Below, piece after piece: positions 2,053-43,908 of a stretch of 64,000 nucleotides of DNA; position 1 is the stretch's first letter, and every line of letters starts with the position of its first letter. Below the pieces are notes generated by a model. It was not told the origin of the DNA. It worked only from the letters and a program-made list of their open reading frames with translations, and did not search any database. This DNA is from Curvularia clavata (taxonomy: Eukaryota). The position numbers and the translations under genes were made by a program. Where the stretch lies: contig CP089274.1 in the NCBI GenBank assembly GCA_023920165.1, positions 2,542,001-2,606,000 of the forward strand, read 5' to 3'.

Positions 2053-3019
2053 TCAAAACACAATTACGTCGTCTGCATTTTCATTCTGCTCGTATGGATC
2101 TTTGTGTCCGTGGCGTTCAAAATAAGCCCGCTGGAAATCCAGATATGGTGATGAAGGCGGACAGAATGCAAAATTCTCAAGCGTATTAGTAGCCTCACGA
2201 TAATCGTCAAATTTGTAGCAGGCATGCTGATCAGGGCGCTTCGCCCAGGCTATCAGTTTGTCCCAGTCGCGGCATTCTCGAACCTGGAAACCACCAGTTT
2301 GATGGGAAAGTGGTGCCGGCATTGGAGTATCGTCTGCCGCACACATGACATCTTGTCGTAATCCATCCAGACAGTGGTAGATGTGCCGGAGATTGAACGC
2401 CTGGTCGCTGCCCTTGTGCTTCGAGACAATAGCTTTGCGAATAAGTTTCTTGAAAAGTTAGTTTCCGGATATTTGACACCAAACACCAGGCCTACCAGGC
2501 AATGTAAGTCATGTATGCCCTTCACATAGTACACACTGCGTTCCGTATCCCACGGAAATGGAGTGGAAGGAGGCAGACCAAGACTTCCTGCAAGTCTATC
2601 GTCAAGTGCAATTGCCATGGCATTAGTGTCGATATCATCCCATGCGGCCTCCATGTCACTGTCGCTTGCATTTGGATGCCAATACTTTGTCATGGCATAG
2701 TATGGCATGTTGGTATCGAAAGCTAGTCCGCCTTCAACAGCGTGAGCACATATTGACTATTTCATACTCGATACCTACTAAACTGGCTCTTGGTCGAGTG
2801 ATGCGAAATGCGGAGTCTCGCATTATCCATGACCAGCAAGATGTTTACTGAAAGTGAGAGGAGCAAAATCGACAAGCATGCAACAAAGCTGCGCGTGTTG
2901 GACGGGATAATTTCGGTGGTGTTGGAGTCCCATGATGTACCGTCCTTCTCTTCTGGTCCAGCCAAGATATTTTCTTCTTCTTCGCTACACACTGGCTGGT
3001 ATGCTGGAGATCCTGCCAT
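2053..3019 (-). CDS. UstYa-like / DUF3328 oxidase (3 exons; introns ~2778-2732 and ~2495-2449)
   Basis: Spliced product has an N-terminal TM helix (FVACLSILLLSLSVNILLV), then GLPPSTPFPWD, HDLHCL, HIYHCLDGLRQDVMCAADDTP and RECRDWDKL. Twin HxxHC motifs plus the CxxDxT and CRDW hallmarks of DUF3328. Confidence 0.92.
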
Positions 3020-14524: not shown

Positions 14525-17500
14525 ATGGCATTTCAAATGGCGCCTGCGACGCCCCAGCGGCCTACTCCCGGCGCCTTCGTCAATACGCCTGCGCCGAATC
14601 GACCCAGCTTTGCACGAACAGGCTCCATGTCGCAACCACAGTCGCAGCAGCAACAGCAACAGCAAACGCTCCCTGCGCCGCCTGCAGAGAGCCCTATAGA
14701 TCGCGCCTCGCGAACTATAAACAGCATGCTGGATAGAGACAACAGGTTTCCAGCTCTAGAGGCATATATTGGCCGTAAGTACTAGGAGCAACAGAGTAGG
14801 ATACTCAAGATACTGACGACATGGTGCAGAGGGCATCTCTGGTGAATACGAGATACCCAGTGGTCCAGCATGGGCACCATTCCAGAAACTGCGGTCGTAC
14901 AAGCTCCCAGAGGCCGTTTTCGAGCAAGTGGATCACACGCAAATGTCGACGAGCATGGGCCTGTTCGCCGAGATCAACCACGCCTGGGTTGTAGTCGACA
15001 ACCAGGTTTACCTTTGGGATTACACGCACCCAAACCCCGAACTCGTCGGCTTCGAGGAGCAACCCAGCAACATTACCTGTGTGAAGCTGGTCAAGCCGCG
15101 TGCCGGTGTCTTTGTGGCTTCTATCGAATACCTCCTCGTCGTCGCAACTGTGTCCGACATCTTCCTGATCGCTGTAGAATGTCAACGAGGACCCGAGGGT
15201 GTTCACGGCATCACAATGTACCGAACTGGATTATCCACATCAGTCCGAAAGATCAACGTGACTGCTATTGCTGGCTCGGACGCGACAGGGCGCATTTTCT
15301 TTGGCGATGGACAGACAGAAGATGTGTATGAGCTGAACTACCAACAAGAGGACAAATGGTTTTCCAGTAAATGCAGCAAAACGAACCATGTCACGACTTC
15401 TATCGGCCTACCCGCATTGCCATTCTATGGAGCCACACGACAGGCTGGTATTCAGCAGATGGCCATTGACGATACCCGGAACGTTTTATACACGCTCTCT
15501 ACCAACGGAACCATCAAGGTCTACTATATGCGTGCACCAAACGTCTTGGAAAGCGCATTGACCCGAACACGTGCACAGATCGAAACCATGTGTGGGCACA
15601 TTGTGCGGCCGACAGGCGTGCTGGACAAGATGCAGATCGTTAGTCTCAGTCCTATTTCTAGTACCGAGGCGGACAACCTGTCTCTCATGGCAATCACATC
15701 GTCAGGTTGCAGGTTGTATCTGAGCACAACATCCGGAGCACAGTGGAACGCAAACAACACAAGCGCGCCAACTAGCATGCAACTACGACACATCCGATTC
15801 CCGCCAAATGACGGTCAGCCCTCGACGCAGAGCAATTCAACCCAAGTACAGCCATACCAGGGTGGCACAGCGGTTGGTTTCGAATCAAGATGGCTCAGAG
15901 AAACTAAACTTGGAATCAGGTACCCACCGGGTGCTTTCTTCTCCTTCGTCCTGAGGTCGCAAAATGACCCTAATCACCACATGTTTGTTTCCGCTCCCCA
16001 CTCCGGACTACTTGGACAGCGGGAAAGCTCAGAGCCCCCACGATACACTGAAACCGGCCTGTTCACGGAACTCGTAGGAAGAGTACAGGACATCGGCTTG
16101 GTATCTGAACCATTCTCAGCCCGAAATGAACCCCTTGGATTTGGTAATGAGCTCGCTACCCAATTTGACAAGCCGCTCTGCGAATACGCCATTATCACAT
16201 CCAACGGTATCGAAACGGTACGACGTAGAAGACTAGTGGACATATTCGCTGCTATTGTGAAGAGTGGAGGTCCCGAAGGCGCTGAAGCCGATATCCGGAA
16301 ACTTGCAAAGCAGTATGGTCTTGCTGAGACCTCAGCTACAGCGCTGGCTGTTGCATGTGGTCAAGGCTCGGATGTTGGACCAGACTCAAGGATCGCCAAA
16401 GTCACGGATCCCGAAGTACTTGACTTTGCCCGCAGGGTGTTCATTGAGTTTGGTGGAAAGGCGCATCTGACTGAGAGCGCGACTGTAGAAGGTCTGAGCG
16501 TAGAGAATGTCCGCGCATCGCCACGCCACGATGGTATCGCCATGTACGTCGCACGCATTGTCCGGTCGATTTGGAATACCCCCATCATCTCGGAAACAGT
16601 CACTCCAACTGGGCCCGTTCTCACTTCGACACACAAGATTACCAAGCTACAGGAGGTACAGCGCTGTTTGGCTCAGCTTCAGGAATTCTTGGAAGCAAAC
16701 AAAATGTTTATTGAAGGATTGGCTGGCCCAGAGGCTTTGGGACGTGCAGCATCACGGCAAGAGGAGGTTGAGCTCCAGGGTGAGAACAGAGCACTCACTA
16801 GCCTGCTGCAAATGGTGAACAATATTGTCGAGGGTATCTCCTTTGTTCTTGTTCTCTTTGAGGAGCGTTTGGAAGACATTCTGGTCCTGCTACCAGACCC
16901 ACAGCTCCAAGCAAGAGTTCGTCAACTCACCTTCCAGGGCCTTTTCTCCGTCAAAGAGGGCAGAGAAATTGCTAGAGAGTTAGTCAAGGCCATTGTCAAC
17001 CGCAACATCACCAAGGGCTCAAACGTTGAGTCAGTTGCCGAGGCCCTTCGGAGGAAGTGTGGCAGCTTCTGCAGTTCGGACGACGTTGTCATCTTCAAGG
17101 CTCAGGAGAGCTTGAAGAAAGCTGCTGACCTGGGTGCAAATGCTGAGCGCGGGCGTTTGCTGCTCAATGACAGTCTGAGATTGTTCGAGGAAGTGGCGAA
17201 GAGCCTAACCTACGAGAACCTGGCTGCAACTGTCGAACAATATATCCAGCTCGAGTTTTATGCCGGTAAGTTGACACGGCTTATGATTTCTGTCTATTTT
17301 TTTCTCTAATACGCTTTTAGGTGCTATTCGACTTGCTCTCAAGGTCGCCGAGGAATGGGATCGAGGCAACAAGGCCCTTGCCTGGTTGCGAGACGCTCGT
17401 GACCAAATCGGCGATGCAAGCGACCCGCGACGCCGCTTTTATGAGCAGCGTGCTTCTTGTTACACTCTGGTGTGCAACGTGATCGAGGCTGTTGACCATG

Positions 17501-18778
17501 CTTACAACACTCAAGGGCCAGTGCCTGACGGTGTTATCTCTCAGGTCACTCGTCGCAAACACGAGGCATATGAGCAGATCAACAATTCCCACGATGAAGT
17601 CTTCCAAACCTACCTGTACGATTGGTACATGCAAAATGGATGGGCTGAGCGATTGCTGGAAATTCGCTCTACATTTGTAGAAGAATACCTGCGACAGAGC
17701 TCCGATACGAACCTGGCTCATGCGGACCTTCTATGGCGCTACTATGCTCATCACCATGATTATCTGAATGCAGCAGAGACACAATTCCAACTTGCGAAGA
17801 GCACTCTTCCCCTGACGCTGGAAAAGAGGATTGAGTATCTGTCACGGGCCAAGGCAAATGCTTCAGCGCGAATGACGGGCTTCTCAGAAACAGGAGCACG
17901 CAACCGACAGTCTAAGCAAGAGTTGCTGCGAAACATTACCGACCATCTCGACATTGCCAACATCCAGGACGATGTCTTGCAGCGAATCAAGGGCGACGAG
18001 CGACTTGTTGGAAAACGGAGAGAAGACGTCATTGAACATCTCAATGGCCAAATTCATCCTCTTGATGAGGTAAGTTTCCCCTAGTACGTGTTTGTTTACC
18101 TCCACTAACATGACCTAGCTCTATCATGACTATGCCGACCAAGCAGGATACTATGATATTTGCCTTCTCATATACCATGCTGCCGATTACCGGAGCGTAC
18201 CCGACATCCGCGCAACATGGACCAACCTTATTGATCAGACCCACCGCAACGCCGTCGCCGATCGCCAGGCTGCACCATGGGAAATTGTTGCATTGAAGGT
18301 CCAGGACCTCGGTCATCGAACCAATCTCAACGAAAATGTCTTCCCTGTCAACGTTGTTCTGCAATTGGTTCTACAGTATGACTTGGAGTTTTACGTCCAT
18401 GACGCCAACGTGCCCAACACTCAGAACTTGGCACTGAACACTAACCTCACATGGCCAATTGATGTCTTCATCAAGTTGAACGCGCCATTTGAGAGCCTGG
18501 TCGCTACTCTCGAAGCACTCTGGTACGCACAAGAGCCACCGTTTGCGGGCCGCAACCGCAAGTTGCTCGTCAAGTGGATCGTCTACCTCGTCGAGCAGTG
18601 GGCTGCCGTTAGCAGGCGAACAGGCGCGTTGTTCGGCGGACCTGAGAACGCCATCGGGCTAGCCGAGGTCATGCGCATCATCCTAGGCAGCGATGTCCTT
18701 GGGCGCGATATGGACGATCAATCGTGGATCCAAAGGGCACGCGACGTCAGCGCTGTAGTTGAGGAAGCTGCTCGCTGA
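14525..18778 (+). CDS. NUP170: Nucleoporin Nup170/Nup157 (Nup155 family); introns 14775-14829, 17266-17320, 18070-18118
   Basis: MGLFAEINHAWVVVDNQVYLWDY, GFGNELATQF and LRRKCGSFCSSDDV motifs; canonical introns join four ORF blocks. Confidence 0.95.
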
Positions 18779-19303: not shown

Positions 19304-20282
19304 ATGCCCATTTGCATCTCGTGCCGTACCCCCGTCCGCACCCTCTACACCACATACTCGAAAGCCGACGACCGCGCCCTCGGCAAAGGCGTGCGCCTAA
19401 CCCAATGTCCTCACTGCAAGAAATTTGCCGACAAATACGTCGAGCATGATTTCGTAGTCTTATTCATCGATCTCGTCTTGATCAAAGCGGAGGTGTATCG
19501 GCATTTGCTGTTTAATCGGCTGGAGAGGGAGGATGACAAGTTCGACGTACGTCCTTTCTCTTAGCTGATGATTGTTGTCAAGGCTGTATGTGTGTGGATA
19601 GCTGATTGTAGCCTAGCGATCTATTCTCCGCCTGGGTATTCTTCTCCTCCTCTTCGACGTATACCTGACGTGGGCGCGAATCGAGAAACTGCCGCTTCCT
19701 GATTCCTCGTCGCTGGCGCATAACGCATCGTCTGCGAGTCTGGCTGTGCCGCCGCACAGTAGTGGTGTCACGAATGCGGTGGTGCTCCAGGCGTATCCGT
19801 TGGGTGCACAATACCTCTTCTTTCTGTGCTTGGTTACGCTGTCCACGCTGGCGTTTCACCTCCCCATTCGCCTGCTGTGCGCGTATAATCCTAGTGGGCT
19901 TCCGGGCGCAGCGAGGAGGCTATGGCAGAAATTGATAGCGTATTTTCCGAATCCGACGCCGTTGTCGACGGCGCTGCTGGTTTCGTCGTGTACGAAGCTT
20001 TTTCCGATTTTACTGATTATTTGGGATTATGATTTGCCGAGTTCGGCCACGGCGGTTAGTTGGGCTGTCATTGTGAATAATATTGCGGCGCTGGAGATAT
20101 TGATGGATTGTGGGTATATAAGAGCTGGCATATTGGTTGGTGTCGGGGCAGGCATGAGGATGCTTGTGATGTGGACTATACTACGGGCGGCTGGACTGGG
20201 TACAGGTTGGGAAGGTTACCTGAGTGAGTGGACAGTCGCCAGCACACTCTGGGGCTGGGCAGGGAACATGACTAGTACTTGA
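19304..20282 (+). CDS. ARV1: Arv1 sterol homeostasis protein (intron 19547-19616)
   Basis: MPICISC...CPHCKKFADKYVEHDFVVLFIDLVLIK zinc-binding Arv1 homology domain, followed by TM segments. Confidence 0.92.
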
Positions 20283-20586
20283 TGAAGGACTGGTTTGTCT
20301 GTGGATTCCAAGCAATAATATGATACCCGTTTGATATTCGTACACGCCAAAGAGTAAAGAAATGAGCTCCATAATGCGCCTAACCAAATGTGCAAATGCG
20401 TGAGTGTTCGACATTGACTGTCCATGCCCAGCTCCTCTGGGCATCGTCCCTCAGCACAGATTTCCTCTCTGTATAACGCGCCCCCCTCGATATGCCCTAA
20501 TACCCCTCATCGCATGTTTCCGCCCATCTTGGAACGCGTATGACTGCACATATACTGTGCATCTTTTGAGGTACAACGCAACACTA

Positions 20587-21219
20587 CTAGCGTCCCTGGT
20601 TAAGCTCTGGTCGCAAGTCGTTTCGTACAGGCGAAATAATGGGGTGGAGTTGCGCAAGAAAAGTAATGGCCCACATGATATACATGGCAGCCGCAGAAAG
20701 CACGAGAGTAGATCGCCAGACCCTGTTCGCAATTAAGTCAGCCTGAAAGTTCCTTTCCCATTTCCCCCCGCTGTCATTATCGCTGATGCTGATGCTGATG
20801 CTGCCTGTCTCTCAAGTCGTCTTCTCGGCAGCGACACACGGGGCATCGCAGGGCTCAGCGTCCCGAGCACGGTTGCGTGTATCCTGTGCAAAGTGTACGC
20901 GCTTGCTGCCGCCGTTGCCGCCACCGCCACCGCCGACCGTAGTAGCAGCGCTGTATAGCTTCTTCTCAGACGCATCGAGGTTCTCAGACGACGACTTGGC
21001 TCGTAGACAGGGTTTGGTGGGCGTGCCGTTCGCCTTGGACGGAGGAATGGTGCGGTAAACGTACGTCTGGTTTTCACCCTTTGGCGCTAGAACCCAGGCT
21101 GCGACACAGAAGATGACGACGACGATGAGGCCGATGATGGGAGCCCAGCTGGTTTGTATTAGTTTTGCTTGGTCTCCTGACAGTAGATGGTGTTCGGTGG
21201 GTATATACCCGTTCGCCAT
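20587..21219 (-). CDS. VMA9: V-ATPase V0 subunit e (exons 21219-21209, 21148-21065, 20722-20587; 76 aa)
   Basis: Spliced product MANGWAPIIGLIVVVIFCVAAWVLAPKGENQT|VWRSTLVLSAAAMYIMWAITFLAQLHPIISPVR carries the WAITFLAQLHP signature. Confidence 0.93.
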
Positions 21220-21929
21220 TGTTGTATTCTTGCGTGTTTGGTAATGCGCGCGGTGTTTCGGTGTAAGAGAGATAACGCGACTGGTTATCTGCGCGAAATA
21301 TTATCCGTTGGTTCCTTCGAGGATTTCGTAGGACGACGAGTTGGCGACGGGACGATGGCTTCGCTGTGTGGAGTCGGACGTGAGCTTGGGAAGCTACGAT
21401 GACGCCGACGGCCAGGGCTCGGGAGTGCTTGGCACACTAACCTGCTTGGTACGCGTATTGCAGTTCTCGAAGTTGTATTCATTCTCATTGCTCAATGTTC
21501 ATTTGTATGTTTGTTTATATTATCTATGAGAGCCTCAGTTTTTAATCTCTCTCCCACAAGAAGGTATTCTGCTCGGTCATTTCTATATCATCGAGTCCTA
21601 GGTATACATGGAAGTCTTCTAGCTGGTCCATATGCCAGCTGCCTCATTCAAATCAACCACTTTAAGATACTATCCTTTTGAGAATATCTTTTTTTGAATA
21701 AATCTATATTGGATGCGGTTTAATAACCACGTGACTATATATATTGGGATTCTATCTCGGCTTAGATAGGTAGCCTCACTCATTTCACTAGTAGGACTAC
21801 TCCTCAGACTATCCGATTGCGGCTCGCTCCTTGATCGTTTGTGCTCGATAATCTATCATGCCACTATCATGGAGATTACTTGCTCTGTATGTTCGCACCT
21901 GTAATTTCCCCATAAATCTTTGATCGTTT

Positions 21930-39636: not shown

Positions 39637-40350
39637 ACATATTTTGTATGGGTGAAGAGTTATCTTCTTTTGCGTCTCGGCGCTACAATATTTGTCTGGC
39701 CTGCAATATCTGGGGTTAGACATGATGTTTTGTTATGAGGTTATGGCATGCTATGGGTATCTTTTGTTCTTGGTCTGTCCTTTCTGATATGATTGCATTA
39801 TAGCGAGGCTTTTTTTTACATGGTTCCATAATTTTGTTGAAATTTACAAGCGGCTAGGTGGTGGAGGGATGCGGGAGGAACACTGCTGAGCTGCTTGCTT
39901 TATACCCCGGGGTGGTGTATGTCTATGCGGCATGAGAATGGCTGGTGCTTTTCGATTTACATTTAGATGTTGAAATTGGCGGAACACGAAATTGAAGTGT
40001 CGTGTTGAAGAAAGAGGACAAATACTGCTTTGCATTGTGGTGACATTTTCTGTGGTTTGATATGGTTTTGTTGTTTGGGTGGTCGGTATTTGGTTAAAGC
40101 CTATGCACGTGAGAGCGCGGCAACGCGTTGCGCAAGCTTTCGCGACATGGAATCATATCGCCACAGCAGCGTGCGGAGTGGAGGCAGGGGTTCCAACACG
40201 TTCGCATCGTCTATGTAAGAAGCCCCAGGCTAGACCAATATAAAATCCTGCGCGCATTGCAATGAAACCTTTTTGACGCCATTGCGTCATCGATTCTGGA
40301 CGTAGTTCATCAGCGCTGTTCGCCAACGAGAACACGGCAATGCTCCAATT

Positions 40351-43300
40351 ATGCCTCGACTCAAGGCCGCTACCGTCTCTGACCAAACAGTACGAAAGCG
40401 AAAGCGAAAATCCTGCAATGACGACGAGAACCAAGCAGGGCCAGCTCCTGGAGGACTGAACGAAGACAGCCCCGATCAACCTGTTTCTGTCCAGGTCACC
40501 ACCACGACGAGCGTACCGACGAAGACGCACGACGGGGGAAAGAAACCACGGCGAACATCGAAGAAAACCGCCGCTAATAAGCCATCCCTCACGCGCCATG
40601 GATCGTCCACATTCGTCGAAACGTCCATACCATGGCCAGAGCACTTCACAAAGCTGGCTCAAGTGCATCGCGCGGTAAACCTAGTGTATACTTTTCTGTG
40701 CACGCGCAAGCATCTAGCAACGACACTGGGCAATCTCAAGAGCACAGTAGAAGGCAACATACAACGCGAGTTATTGGTCGAGGATGTGGCGCAAATCACC
40801 GCATTGATCCCAAAGGCAATCAACTTCACGTATGTGGACGAAGCGATGTTGCAGATTAATCTGATGGGCTCAGAAGACAACATGCAAGGGAGAAGCACAA
40901 CGGACTTTGCAATACTGGGGCCTGAGCCAGAAAAAGGGGAGCACAAGGAAGTTCTGCTCTTTGAGTTCATTGATGGCGATCTGAAGCGCCAGGTCCAGCA
41001 TAAGAAGACTGGGGAGCCTACAAACCCCTCGACCAAATTGCGCCATGAGGACCTCAAGATGCCGGTGTTTAGCCAGAAGCAGATGATGAATTTGATTGAG
41101 AAGAGGAATCTCAAGTTTACTTCGGCGGTCAATGCCTTTTTGAATCAGTGTGCCGAGGAAGGTGTTGATGCAGTGCAAAAGATCAAGGAGGCATCCGAGG
41201 CTTTCATTCCGATGCCAGCTGAGAGTAGAGCATCGACTCCAGGCCCAGAGAGGTCACTGCTCCCGTCAGCGATACCGGCACAGCGCAAGTCTGTTCCGGA
41301 AATTCTGAACGAAATCAAGACGCTCGAGTGGTATACTGGCCAGATTGTGCCAGACGGTCATCGTGTCTTCGATCCCCAGGAACCAGTGTATGGCGACCTC
41401 AACTTTGCCATGTCGCAGAATCTCGTCAATGCCCTGTATAATACGAAGAATATCACGCAGCTGTATGCTCACCAAGCCGAGGCTATAAACAATCTGTACG
41501 ATGGCCATCATGTTATTGTATCTACCTCCACAAGCTCTGGTAAATCCCTCATCTACCAGATACCTGTGCTGCATCAGCTGGAGCAAGAGCCAAATACGCG
41601 AGCCATGTACATCTTCCCTACCAAGGCGCTAGCCCAGGACCAGAGGAAGAGCATGAAGGAACTCTTGCGCTTCATGCCTGGCTTCGAAGATGTCCTAGTC
41701 GAGACTTACGACGGGGATACCCCGATGAGCGATCGTAACTATATCCGCGACGAGGCACGAATCATCTTCACGAATCCCGACATGCTGCATATTACCATTC
41801 TACCGCAGGAGGATTCCTGGCGCACGTTTCTGCAGAACCTCCGGTTCGTAGTCGTGGATGAGTTGCATGTGTACAATGGACTCTTTGGAGCACACATGGC
41901 GTTCATCATGCGGCGCCTACGAAGGATATGTGCGGCAGTGGGCAACCGCCATGTCAAGTTCGTCTCGTGCTCAGCCACCGTTGCGAATCCCGAAGAACAC
42001 ATGAAGACTATCTTTGGAGTCGATGAAGTCAGACTGACGGACTTTGACGGATCGCCTTCTGGTCGCAAAGAGTTTCTCTGCTGGAACACGCCTTTCAAAG
42101 ATCCTGGAGACCCTACGTCTGGACGCGGCGATTGCATGGCTGAGACTGCAAAGCTTTTCTGTCAACTCATGCTGCGAGGCGTGAGAACCATTGCGTTCTG
42201 TCGCATACGCAAACAGTGTGAAGCGCTGATGGTGGCTGTCAAGACGGAGCTGACGAATCTGGAACGACCAGAAGTCATTCCTCGCGTTACGTCGTATCGA
42301 GGTGGATACACGCCTCAAGACAGGCGAGAGATTGAGCGAGAAATGTTCGATGGCAAACTCTGTGGCATTGTCGCTACGAGTGCGCTTGAACTAGGTGTGG
42401 ATATCGGATCTTTGGATGCAGTCATTACAGTGGGTTTTCCCTACACGATTGCCAATCTCCGTCAGCAGAGTGGACGTGCTGGTCGGAGAAACAAGGACTC
42501 TCTGTCCGTTTTGGTCGGTGACAGCTTCCCTACGGATCAGTACTACATGTCGAACCCAGACGAAATCTTCACCAAACCAAATTGCGCGCTTCAGGTTGAT
42601 CTGGAGAATATGCTTGTTGTTGAAGGCCATATTCAGTGCGCTGCTCACGAGATGCCAATCAATGTAGAGGCTGATACGGTGTACTTTGGGCCTCTGCTTC
42701 CTAAGATTGCCCGCGAGCGTATGCGCCGTGACAAAGAAGGCTTCTACCACGTCAACGAGCGGTTTCTTCCGCAGCCATCTCGCACTGTGGCTATCCGTGA
42801 TACGGAAGAAGACCACTTTGCTATCATTGATGTCACAAATGGGAAGAATACAGTCCTCGAAGAGCTCGAAGCCAGCCGCGCCTTCTTTACGCTCTACGAC
42901 GGTGGTATATTCCTACACCAAGGCAACACCTACCTAGTCAAGGAGTTCTCCCCAGAGCGGATGCTTGCAAAAGTTGAGTACGTAAAAGTAGACTGGACAA
43001 CCCAGCAGCGCGACTACACAGACATCGACCCCGTCGAGACCGAGGCCATACGCCGCATCCCCGGCTCGCGATCCAAAGCCTTCTATGGCCCCATCAAAAT
43101 CAAACAAGTCGTCTACGGCTTCTTCAAACTCGACAAAAGGCGGCGGATCCTTGATGCCGTCCAAGTCGACAACCCACCCATTATCCTCTTCAGCAAAGGC
43201 ATGTGGCTCGACGTGCCCAAGTGCGCCATGGACATACTCAAGTCGCGGCGTCTCAACATCGCCGCCGGGATCCACGCCGCCGAACACGCCGTCCTGTCCC

Positions 43301-43908
43301 TCATGCCCAACTTTGTCATTTCAATGCCCGGCGACGTACGCACCGAATGCAAAGTCCCCGAGAAAGAGTTTCTGCAGAAGGAGTCCTCACGAAAGCGGCC
43401 TGCACGACTTACCTTTTACGATGCCAAGGGTGGTGCAAGTGGTTCTGGGATTAGTACCAAGGCATTTGAGTTCATCGATACGCTACTGCACCAGGCGTGC
43501 CAAAGATTGACGAGTTGCCATTGTCTGCAAGGGTGTAATGAGTGCTGTAATGACGATGCGTGTAAGCAAGCCAATCAGGTCATGTCCAAAGCCGGTGCCA
43601 TGGTTATTATCATGTGTCTGCTAGGCAAAGAGCGGCAGATTGATATTGAGAGTTTGCCCTGGGGCGAGGAGGATGTCGAGCAGGGTTTCGATACAGTCGT
43701 CGAGGCTGTGGGGGTAAGGATGGCGGAGGGGAAGGTGAGGGATGGGGGGACGTTGCCCGGAGAAGGGGACGATGGTGAGAGGATGGTGAGGGCGAGGTTG
43801 GTGGATGGTGTTTGGGTTAAGGAAGAAGAGGACGATGAGGAGGATCATTTCAAGAAGAGTATCAGGATGTACGGGGGAGAGAGGACGTTTATTGGGGTGC
43901 ACAGATAG
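40351..43908 (+). CDS. HRQ1: Hrq1/RecQ4-like (MrfA-type) helicase with C-terminal DUF1998 Zn domain
   Basis: TSTSSGKS, PTKALAQDQ, DELH, SAT, ATSALELGVDIG, QQSGRAGR, IHAAEHA and C-x-C-x3-C-x2-C motifs; intronless 1185 aa. Confidence 0.93.
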   Translation: MPRLKAATVSDQTVRKRKRKSCNDDENQAGPAPGGLNEDSPDQPVSVQVTTTTSVPTKTHDGGKKPRRTSKKTAANKPSLTRHGSSTFVETSIPWPEHFTKLAQVHRAVNLVYTFLCTRKHLATTLGNLKSTVEGNIQRELLVEDVAQITALIPKAINFTYVDEAMLQINLMGSEDNMQGRSTTDFAILGPEPEKGEHKEVLLFEFIDGDLKRQVQHKKTGEPTNPSTKLRHEDLKMPVFSQKQMMNLIEKRNLKFTSAVNAFLNQCAEEGVDAVQKIKEASEAFIPMPAESRASTPGPERSLLPSAIPAQRKSVPEILNEIKTLEWYTGQIVPDGHRVFDPQEPVYGDLNFAMSQNLVNALYNTKNITQLYAHQAEAINNLYDGHHVIVSTSTSSGKSLIYQIPVLHQLEQEPNTRAMYIFPTKALAQDQRKSMKELLRFMPGFEDVLVETYDGDTPMSDRNYIRDEARIIFTNPDMLHITILPQEDSWRTFLQNLRFVVVDELHVYNGLFGAHMAFIMRRLRRICAAVGNRHVKFVSCSATVANPEEHMKTIFGVDEVRLTDFDGSPSGRKEFLCWNTPFKDPGDPTSGRGDCMAETAKLFCQLMLRGVRTIAFCRIRKQCEALMVAVKTELTNLERPEVIPRVTSYRGGYTPQDRREIEREMFDGKLCGIVATSALELGVDIGSLDAVITVGFPYTIANLRQQSGRAGRRNKDSLSVLVGDSFPTDQYYMSNPDEIFTKPNCALQVDLENMLVVEGHIQCAAHEMPINVEADTVYFGPLLPKIARERMRRDKEGFYHVNERFLPQPSRTVAIRDTEEDHFAIIDVTNGKNTVLEELEASRAFFTLYDGGIFLHQGNTYLVKEFSPERMLAKVEYVKVDWTTQQRDYTDIDPVETEAIRRIPGSRSKAFYGPIKIKQVVYGFFKLDKRRRILDAVQVDNPPIILFSKGMWLDVPKCAMDILKSRRLNIAAGIHAAEHAVLSLMPNFVISMPGDVRTECKVPEKEFLQKESSRKRPARLTFYDAKGGASGSGISTKAFEFIDTLLHQACQRLTSCHCLQGCNECCNDDACKQANQVMSKAGAMVIIMCLLGKERQIDIESLPWGEEDVEQGFDTVVEAVGVRMAEGKVRDGGTLPGEGDDGERMVRARLVDGVWVKEEEDDEEDHFKKSIRMYGGERTFIGVHR

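Follow-up and report, generated by a model that had tools for sequence, protein, structure and literature searches.

A conserved intron-encoded tail suggests that VMA9 of Curvularia and its relatives makes a second membrane protein

Subunit e is the least understood subunit of the V-ATPase, and the settings in which RVxF motifs, the short elements that dock protein phosphatase 1 (PP1), typically work are disordered ones, with basic residues before the motif and acidic residues or serine after it. KNL1/Spc105 is reportedly a regulator with SILK and RVxF motifs in tandem, and one study is said to have linked loss of the V-ATPase to glucose-sensitive phosphatases. Rif1 is likewise described as a tandem SILK and RVxF regulator in the available part of a source that gives the two consensus sequences as (S/G)IL(K/R) and (K/R)x(V/I)x(F/W), respectively (PMC3937515), and a second source, also available in part, writes the RVxF consensus as [RK]x0-1[VI]{P}[FW] and puts the chance occurrence of this short form at about 25% of proteins (PMC4794898). 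In yeast, an N-terminal extension of eIF2-gamma with the RVxF-like sequence KKVAF recruits PP1 in cis, according to the portion of the report available (PMC6506691). Finally, retention of an intron in PTC7 of S. cerevisiae leads to two proteins of different localisation, and the same report, as far as its available text goes, describes yeast VMA9 as having two introns, both short (<100 bp; PMC4227748).

VMA9 in the window analysed here (the whole stretch of 64,000 nucleotides from Curvularia clavata) is a three-exon gene on the minus strand, the canonical subunit e product of which has 76 aa after splicing. Retention of intron 2 would instead give a read-through protein of 115 aa that includes 83 intron codons, with exon 3 as 3' UTR. 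Because intron 2 encodes a conserved, disordered tail with a docking-type motif, the gene probably makes two membrane proteins; we see somewhat better than an even chance that VMA9 in the Curvularia/Bipolaris/Alternaria/Pyrenophora group gives rise, in addition to subunit e, to a retention isoform with a predicted RVxF tail. The features of the gene, in window coordinates, are as follows.

21209..21219, minus strand: VMA9 exon 1, ATG plus 8 nt, encoding M-A-N-G
21149..21208, minus strand: VMA9 intron 1, 60 nt, GT..AG
21065..21148, minus strand: VMA9 exon 2, first TM helix and start of the loop (…APKGENQ-T), common to both products
20723..21064, minus strand: VMA9 intron 2, 342 nt, GTACGT...CAG, mostly coding as well when retained
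20815..21063, minus strand: tail ORF, 83 codons continuing the exon 2 frame, predicted to be disordered and under purifying selection
21001..21015, minus strand: KPCLR island, SILK-like, outside the consensus; P-x-K-P-C-L-R in relatives
20890..20904, minus strand: KRVHF island, RVxF-type motif by consensus
20812..20814, minus strand: TGA stop of the read-through product
20723..20811, minus strand: remaining non-coding part of intron 2, with microsatellite, branch motif and CAG 3' splice site
20782-20803: (GCATCA)n microsatellite, after the tail stop and within intron 2
20741-20737, minus strand: CTGAC branch motif of intron 2
20587..20722, minus strand: VMA9 exon 3, second helix and C-terminus of subunit e, TAG at 20589-20587
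20294..20586, minus strand: VMA9 3' UTR, transcript end near 20294; contigs reach 20290-20294

The layout bears out what a first-pass annotation had read from the letters of the window, i.e., an intron 2 of 342 nt that is open for 83 codons past exon 2 up to a stop at 20814-20812, is GC-rich (0.588, vs. 0.433 for intron 1 and 0.550 for the CDS), has KPCLR at 21015-21001 and KRVHF at 20904-20890 on the minus strand, and would yield a single-pass product of about 115 aa. In the spliced product of 76 aa, the subunit e profile PF05493 is represented by both of its halves; the exon 3 peptide scores 54.4 bits (cut-off 25) over profile positions 28-61, and a spliced, cDNA-like relative (L006) scores 87.1 bits. 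The read-through isoform (P0001) aligns to profile positions 3-31 only and stays, at 22.3 bits, below the cut-off.

Structure prediction for the read-through product (AF2, alignment of 13 sequences) gives one confident helix at residues 6-24 and no second helix, so that the two-helix hairpin of subunit e is predicted to be absent from this isoform. From residue 41 onwards the mean pLDDT is 41-52 per 10-residue block, with a 3-residue turn as the only secondary structure, and the tail is below 50 over residues 50-85 and 95-115; the ESM Atlas model (pLDDT 0.54) agrees, and both predictions place the RVxF-type island in an accessible, disordered setting. The ESM Atlas gave no usable feature match, and its structure matches were discarded as meaningless, the model being of low confidence. 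With respect to topology, the glycan at Asn70 of subunit e2, a residue close to the C-terminus (bioRxiv 10.1101/2024.04.01.587493, available part of the text), places the termini of subunit e in the lumen and its loop in the cytosol. Since the tail begins in this cytosolic loop of the hairpin, it would face the cytosol as well.

Several other characteristics of the locus are worth recording. The length of intron 1 (60 nt) is divisible by three, and none of its 20 in-frame codons is a stop; in several relatives, gene callers of the prokaryotic style run through it, giving proteins that start M-A-N-G-Y… (P0002, P0007, P0021-P0023 and P0025). A GGN run at 20918-20939 encodes a Gly-rich stretch that, among the tails, is confined to the Curvularia type (P0001 and P0002). 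Convergent with VMA9 is a gene of the Arv1 family (PF04161, E=1.6e-24) at 19617-20282 on the plus strand; about 12 nt separate the end of its open frame from the place near 20294 where the VMA9 transcript apparently ends. Elsewhere in the window, Pfam identified a fragment of a UstYa-family, mycotoxin-biosynthesis-type protein (2056-2457, minus strand), a Nup133-like nucleoporin as three ORFs separated by introns (14817-18775, plus strand), an HRQ1-type helicase (40306-43905, plus strand), and a sugar transporter, CobW, Mob1, HIT, M28 peptidase, NmrA and class-III aminotransferase. No PPP-family phosphatase was found by Pfam in the 97 window ORFs of at least 130 aa.

In the window sequence alone, the open frame of intron 2 is no more than chance would provide: of 5000 shuffles of the intron interior that preserved its dinucleotides, 374 were open for 83 codons or more, and two other frames of the intron are as open, one sense (109 codons) and one antisense (103). 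Per-lineage shuffles gave P=0.17-0.33 of remaining open through the position of the RVxF-type motif. A relative (L015) with the motifs in none of its frames has a 305-nt intron 2 (L015:2596-2900, 57% GC) that is open for 101 codons; since this motif-free intron is equally open, openness alone is uninformative, and a signal emerges from comparison only. The lineage of L015, which also includes L013 and L016, serves as a natural negative control for the tail motifs, and the L015 intron may mean that the long intron predates the coding tail or that it arose independently.

For this comparison, metagenomes were scanned with peptide patterns of exon 2, which matched 56 stretches that resolved into 22 loci; because the search key was exon 2, these loci are free of selection on the tail. 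Both motifs are present in the read-through frame of 11 loci (L001-L005, L007-L012) and absent from eight (L013-L016, L019-L022), in which intron 2, where measurable, has 73, 129 or 305 nt; the sequence of two more (L017, L018) ends 7 codons into the intron, and the last is the spliced, cDNA-like contig mentioned above. The motif-bearing introns measure 254, 276, 278, 301 and 361 nt (342 in the window), vs. 73 and 129 nt for intron 2 outside the clade, and are not constrained to multiples of three; the portion up to the stop is always in frame, and the stop itself falls 44-89 nt before the 3' splice site in the relatives. Judging from these sequences, the tail is probably restricted to a Pleosporaceae-type clade of Curvularia, Bipolaris, Alternaria, Pyrenophora and close relatives. 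In the comparison of orthologous introns that had been proposed as a check, the open frame and both islands recur in one clade; they are not general to Pezizomycotina, being absent from the eight loci and from Plenodomus.

Of 32 candidate proteins found with the read-through product as query, 17 reached E<=0.01, and 13 of these 17 are read-throughs of the same intron with both motifs. They are mostly annotated as hypothetical proteins, i.e., they are the output of gene callers and no proof of expression, and comprise a Curvularia clavata record of 115 aa that is 100% identical to the window's product, sequences from Bipolaris sorokiniana, B. maydis, Pyrenophora tritici-repentis, P. teres, Alternaria arborescens, A. 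panax, A. novae-zelandiae and Alternaria sp., three metagenomic proteins, and one from an assembled public sequencing run. The other four are a model from A. burnsii, two motif-free read-throughs (one of them from Plenodomus lindquistii) and a canonical 76-aa subunit e. The A. burnsii entry (P0008) is a 116-aa PF05493 model annotated as 'hydrogen ion transmembrane transporter', with a donor site inside intron 2; it reads as a subunit e with both helices and 40 extra residues in the loop, which include KPSLR but no RVxF-type motif. With a profile of the tail only, a search of 1.84 billion proteins recovered six representatives at E<=0.001, each one a VMA9 read-through; that is, no representative outside the VMA9 read-throughs shares the tail at this threshold. 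A second, word-indexed search yielded 18 proteins from 1609 candidates, six of them new, and a PDB profile search with the tail gave no matches at E<=10.

Eight proteins from the tail-only profile work joined the 17, making 25 in all, and 21 of these carry both K-x-C-L-[R/H] and [K/R]-[R/S]-V-[H/R]-F; the other four are the alternative gene model, two read-throughs from outside the clade, and one canonical subunit e. In an alignment of 13 proteins, K, C and L of the first island and V and F of the second are invariant, P, P, R and R are nearly so, and both the sequence and the length between the islands vary. Exceptions to the motifs are KPSLR in Alternaria burnsii and one changed basic residue in each of L002 and L005. 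Global pairwise nucleotide alignments of the tail between genera were too gapped for a dependable count of indels of 3n and non-3n length, and the lengths of protein linkers were used instead: 13-34 codons separate exon 2 from the first motif and 18-32 residues the first motif from the second, always in frame, so the frame is kept through length changes. The read-through proteins range from 93 to 147 aa across the clade, and their tails share no conserved internal Met.

The substitutions themselves show purifying selection on the intron-encoded peptide, and in the claimed frame only. In a codon alignment of nine sequences (L004, the tail of which equals that of L003, was left out, as were L007 and L008, which are truncated), the first island uses AAA/AAG for K, TGT/TGC for C, CTA/CTG/TTG for L and CGA/CGC for R, and the second GTA/GTT/GTC for V and TTT/TTC for F; all codon differences within the islands are synonymous. 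Over ungapped blocks, pN/pS was lowest in the claimed frame for 11 of 12 pairs (the exception being L001/L005), with values of 0.30-0.84, compared with roughly 1 or higher when the frame was shifted. The close pair L010/L012, the alignment of which is free of guesswork, shows 11.8 synonymous differences on 54 sites and 11.2 nonsynonymous ones on 170 (p=0.0035). A codon model (IQ-TREE, GY+F3X4) fitted to six lineages (the window, L001, L003, L005, L010 and L012, the other motif-bearing loci being near-duplicate or truncated and hence omitted) gave an omega of 0.28 in the claimed frame vs. 1.05 and 1.50 for the +1 and +2 translations taken through the same protein-guided alignment pipeline, and a likelihood ratio test against omega=1 gave 2dlnL=52.4 (p=5e-13). 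The canonical VMA9 exons have an omega of 0.062. No other frame is stop-free across all six lineages, and third codon positions of the tail are GC- and C-rich, as in the long exons of the window. The far C-terminal end of the tail is not conserved and is frame-shifted in L012; therefore, the selected part extends from exon 2 to just past the second motif. The first-pass proposal of a coding tail, checked in orthologous introns, thus gains support within the clade.

With respect to RNA structure, RNAalifold on six introns predicted a weak fold of -7.7 kcal/mol, with a covariation term of +2 and one of 20 pairs compensatory. An Rfam search of 20400-21400 at E<=10 found nothing at the gathering score, and its two snoRNA-like sub-threshold matches (15 and 12.3 bits vs. 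gathering scores of 35 and 50) led us to reject an intronic snoRNA. One of them, the snoZ6-like match at 20787-20833 on the plus strand (15 bits, E=3.2), is antisense to the intron microsatellite and is taken as chance.

The RNA evidence consists of contigs from four runs (X1, X9, X10 and X14), three of them classed as RNA by guess, and these contigs carry no strand, cytoplasmic-location or translation information. Both splice joints (20721/21064 and 21148/21209) are present in the contigs of all four runs, with depths of 577.6, 11, 133.5 and 7.61 at the intron 2 joint, and the spliced form is dominant in each. Beside it, X1 has a 401-nt contig (20693-21093) with the whole of intron 2 plus 29-30 nt of both exons, at a depth of 78.8 vs. 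577.6 for the junction, or about 12% of the isoform-specific depth; X9 has an intron contig (20773-21034) at a depth of 4.9 vs. 11, or about 31% at low depth. The contigs of these two runs thus agree with the proposed retained-intron RNA. An intron piece in X10 is of low depth and derives from a relative about 92% alike, and X14 has no intron-bearing contig; missing contig cover carries no weight, be it of intron 2 in X14, of intron 1 in X1, X9 and X14, or of 21403-21800 in all four runs. Nuclear pre-mRNA or carried-over DNA could account for the intron-bearing contigs, and a retained transcript, with a 3' UTR of about 520 nt, could be a target of NMD. As regards other details of the contigs, X10 has a loose contig end with a T-run before 20294, at the VMA9 transcript end, one 1510-nt contig of X1 spans the Arv1-family gene together with VMA9, and the microsatellite after the tail stop varies between strains (minus 6 nt in X9, plus 3 nt at 20798 in X10).

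How well the two islands agree with described docking motifs differs between them. The first is K-[P/A]-C-L-[R/H], and none of the 25 proteins matches the SILK consensus, so KPCLR cannot keep the SILK-type label it had been given. The label of KRVHF as an RVxF-type motif holds: the short consensus is matched by 21 of the 25, as is a five-residue core that we take to be [HKR][ACHKMNQRSTV]V[CHKNQRST][FW], and an acidic and Ser/Thr-rich stretch follows. The strict six-residue form, [KR][KR][ACHKMNQRSTV]V[CHKNQRST][FW] in the available part of PMC4794898, is matched by none of the 25, the reason being a G, S or A three positions ahead of V. The tail motif also resembles RRVSFA, a peptide that, according to the same source, has been crystallised with PP1 (PMC4794898).

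It is important to weigh these data against the view that intron 2 is an ordinary intron, with open reading frames that are artefacts of gene callers in stop-poor, GC-rich sequence, islands that serve RNA or DNA functions (e.g., splicing enhancers or structure) and intron-bearing RNA that is unprocessed or decaying pre-mRNA. The absence of significant openness in any single sequence, the other open frames in the window, the equally open L015 intron, the microsatellites within the intron that vary between strains, and the strong splice signals together with the dominance of the spliced form in four of four runs are all compatible with such an intron. However, it would be hard to reconcile with island variation confined to synonymous sites, an omega of 0.28 in the claimed frame against values at or above 1 in the shifted ones, or a frame relative to exon 2 that survives many length changes, and the weak fold and the Rfam result lend nothing to an RNA function; we therefore regard an ordinary intron as very improbable. 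Slightly more improbable still, in our judgment, is an alternative 5' splice site inside intron 2, by which a subunit e with both helices would gain a piece of the tail within its cytosolic loop. This is how the A. burnsii model is built, retaining the first island as KPSLR and joining it to exon 3; on the other hand, that model is a single annotation, the basis of which is not given, it loses the RVxF island, although the two islands are equally conserved, and the contigs of all four runs contain the two canonical joints only and no junctions from inside intron 2.

A less easily dismissed alternative is that intron retention does yield a real protein under selection, the motifs of which serve something other than PP1 docking. 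For instance, the invariant Cys might be S-acylated, the basic-hydrophobic island and the acidic stretch might be a signal for sorting or retrieval, or the first helix on its own might compete with full-length subunit e and thereby tune V0 assembly while the tail binds another partner. The evidence for selection and conservation fits this alternative equally well, the first island fits no PP1 consensus, the strict RVxF form is unmatched and the short form is common by chance according to the part of PMC4794898 available, and the tail is shared by no representative beyond the VMA9 read-throughs at E<=0.001 and matched nothing in the PDB at E<=10. What speaks for docking is the invariance of V and F, their position in a predicted disordered region with basic residues before and acidic residues or Ser after, and the likeness to the peptide crystallised with PP1 (PMC4794898, as far as available). 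We consider a function other than PP1 docking unlikely, though a serious contender, and favor, by a modest degree of confidence, the retention isoform with a predicted RVxF tail.

Under this favored reading, one start codon would serve two proteins. Splicing of intron 2 would give the 76-aa, two-helix subunit e, and its retention a protein of 93-147 aa (115 aa here) that has the first helix of subunit e as its single anchor, followed by a disordered tail that would face the cytosol by the hairpin topology of subunit e. The tail evolves fast and yet keeps P-x-K-P-C-L-R and, 18-32 residues further on, [K/R]-[R/S]-V-[H/R]-F, an RVxF-type motif that would most likely dock a phosphatase of the PP1 type (Glc7, possibly Ppz) at whichever membrane holds the helix, i.e., ER, vacuole or V0. 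Our confidence differs among the elements of this scheme: it is very likely that the tail is translated, retention of the intron is a likely route to the tail protein, and whether the tail docks a member of the PP1 family is an evenly balanced call. The interpretation offered by the first-pass annotation survives in the conserved, selected tail and the intron-bearing RNA, and has to be corrected on the SILK label and on the taxonomic range, which is that of a Pleosporaceae-type clade.

A more elaborate scenario, which we put forward tentatively and regard as rather unlikely in its entirety, is that the intron was exonised in the ancestor of one plant-associated fungal family, that the resulting single-pass microprotein with its RVxF tail tethers PP1 or Ppz at the V0, vacuolar or ER membrane, and that the splicing efficiency of intron 2 sets the ratio of pump subunit to phosphatase anchor. 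If true, that phosphatase anchor would regulate pump assembly, ion homeostasis or vacuole fusion.

Should the isoform be made, it would represent a natural example of a new protein born from an intron, in which intron retention turns a two-helix subunit of a complex into a single-pass adaptor and a proton-pump gene gains a phosphatase-docking motif in cis. The fungal family concerned includes major pathogens of cereals and vegetables (Bipolaris, Pyrenophora, Alternaria and Curvularia), and the locus is annotated inconsistently among them, as 'hypothetical protein', as 'subunit e' with a wrong C-terminus, or as a loop-insertion model. In the literature searched, which did not extend to subscription journals, neither a second product of VMA9 nor any of these locus tags is described.

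Finally, how does VMA9 compare with the systems described previously? With canonical subunit e (Vma9/ATP6V0E, PF05493), the read-through isoform shares the gene, the start codon and the first helix, but it is predicted to lack the second helix and falls short of the family cut-off (22.3 vs. 25 bits). The likeness to Rif1 and KNL1/Spc105 consists of two short islands in a disordered region, the RVxF-type one downstream and spaced by a few tens of residues; the upstream island of VMA9 is P-C-L-R rather than (S/G)IL(K/R), and there is no sequence homology (comparison limited to the available part of PMC3937515). PTC7, as presented in the available text of PMC4227748, is the closest precedent for two proteins by intron retention, being likewise a fungal gene with spliced and unspliced mRNAs, products that differ in membrane character, and an intron in the frame of the upstream exon. 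VMA9 has co-existing spliced and intron-bearing forms, and its intron-encoded peptide is under purifying selection; however, the PTC7 intron is stop-free and inserts a segment, whereas the VMA9 intron stops inside and its disordered tail would replace the second helix, and both PTC7 mRNAs are used, whereas the retained form of VMA9 is known here from sequence and contigs. The closest parallel for the motif is eIF2-gamma of yeast, where one subunit of a conserved core complex has similarly gained a lineage-restricted RVxF-type motif (PMC6506691, available part). That extension is constitutive and its binding of PP1 has been demonstrated, whereas the motif of VMA9 is a candidate identified by sequence and would be confined to an alternative isoform; in either setting, such a motif could bring PP1 to a complex without a dedicated regulatory subunit.
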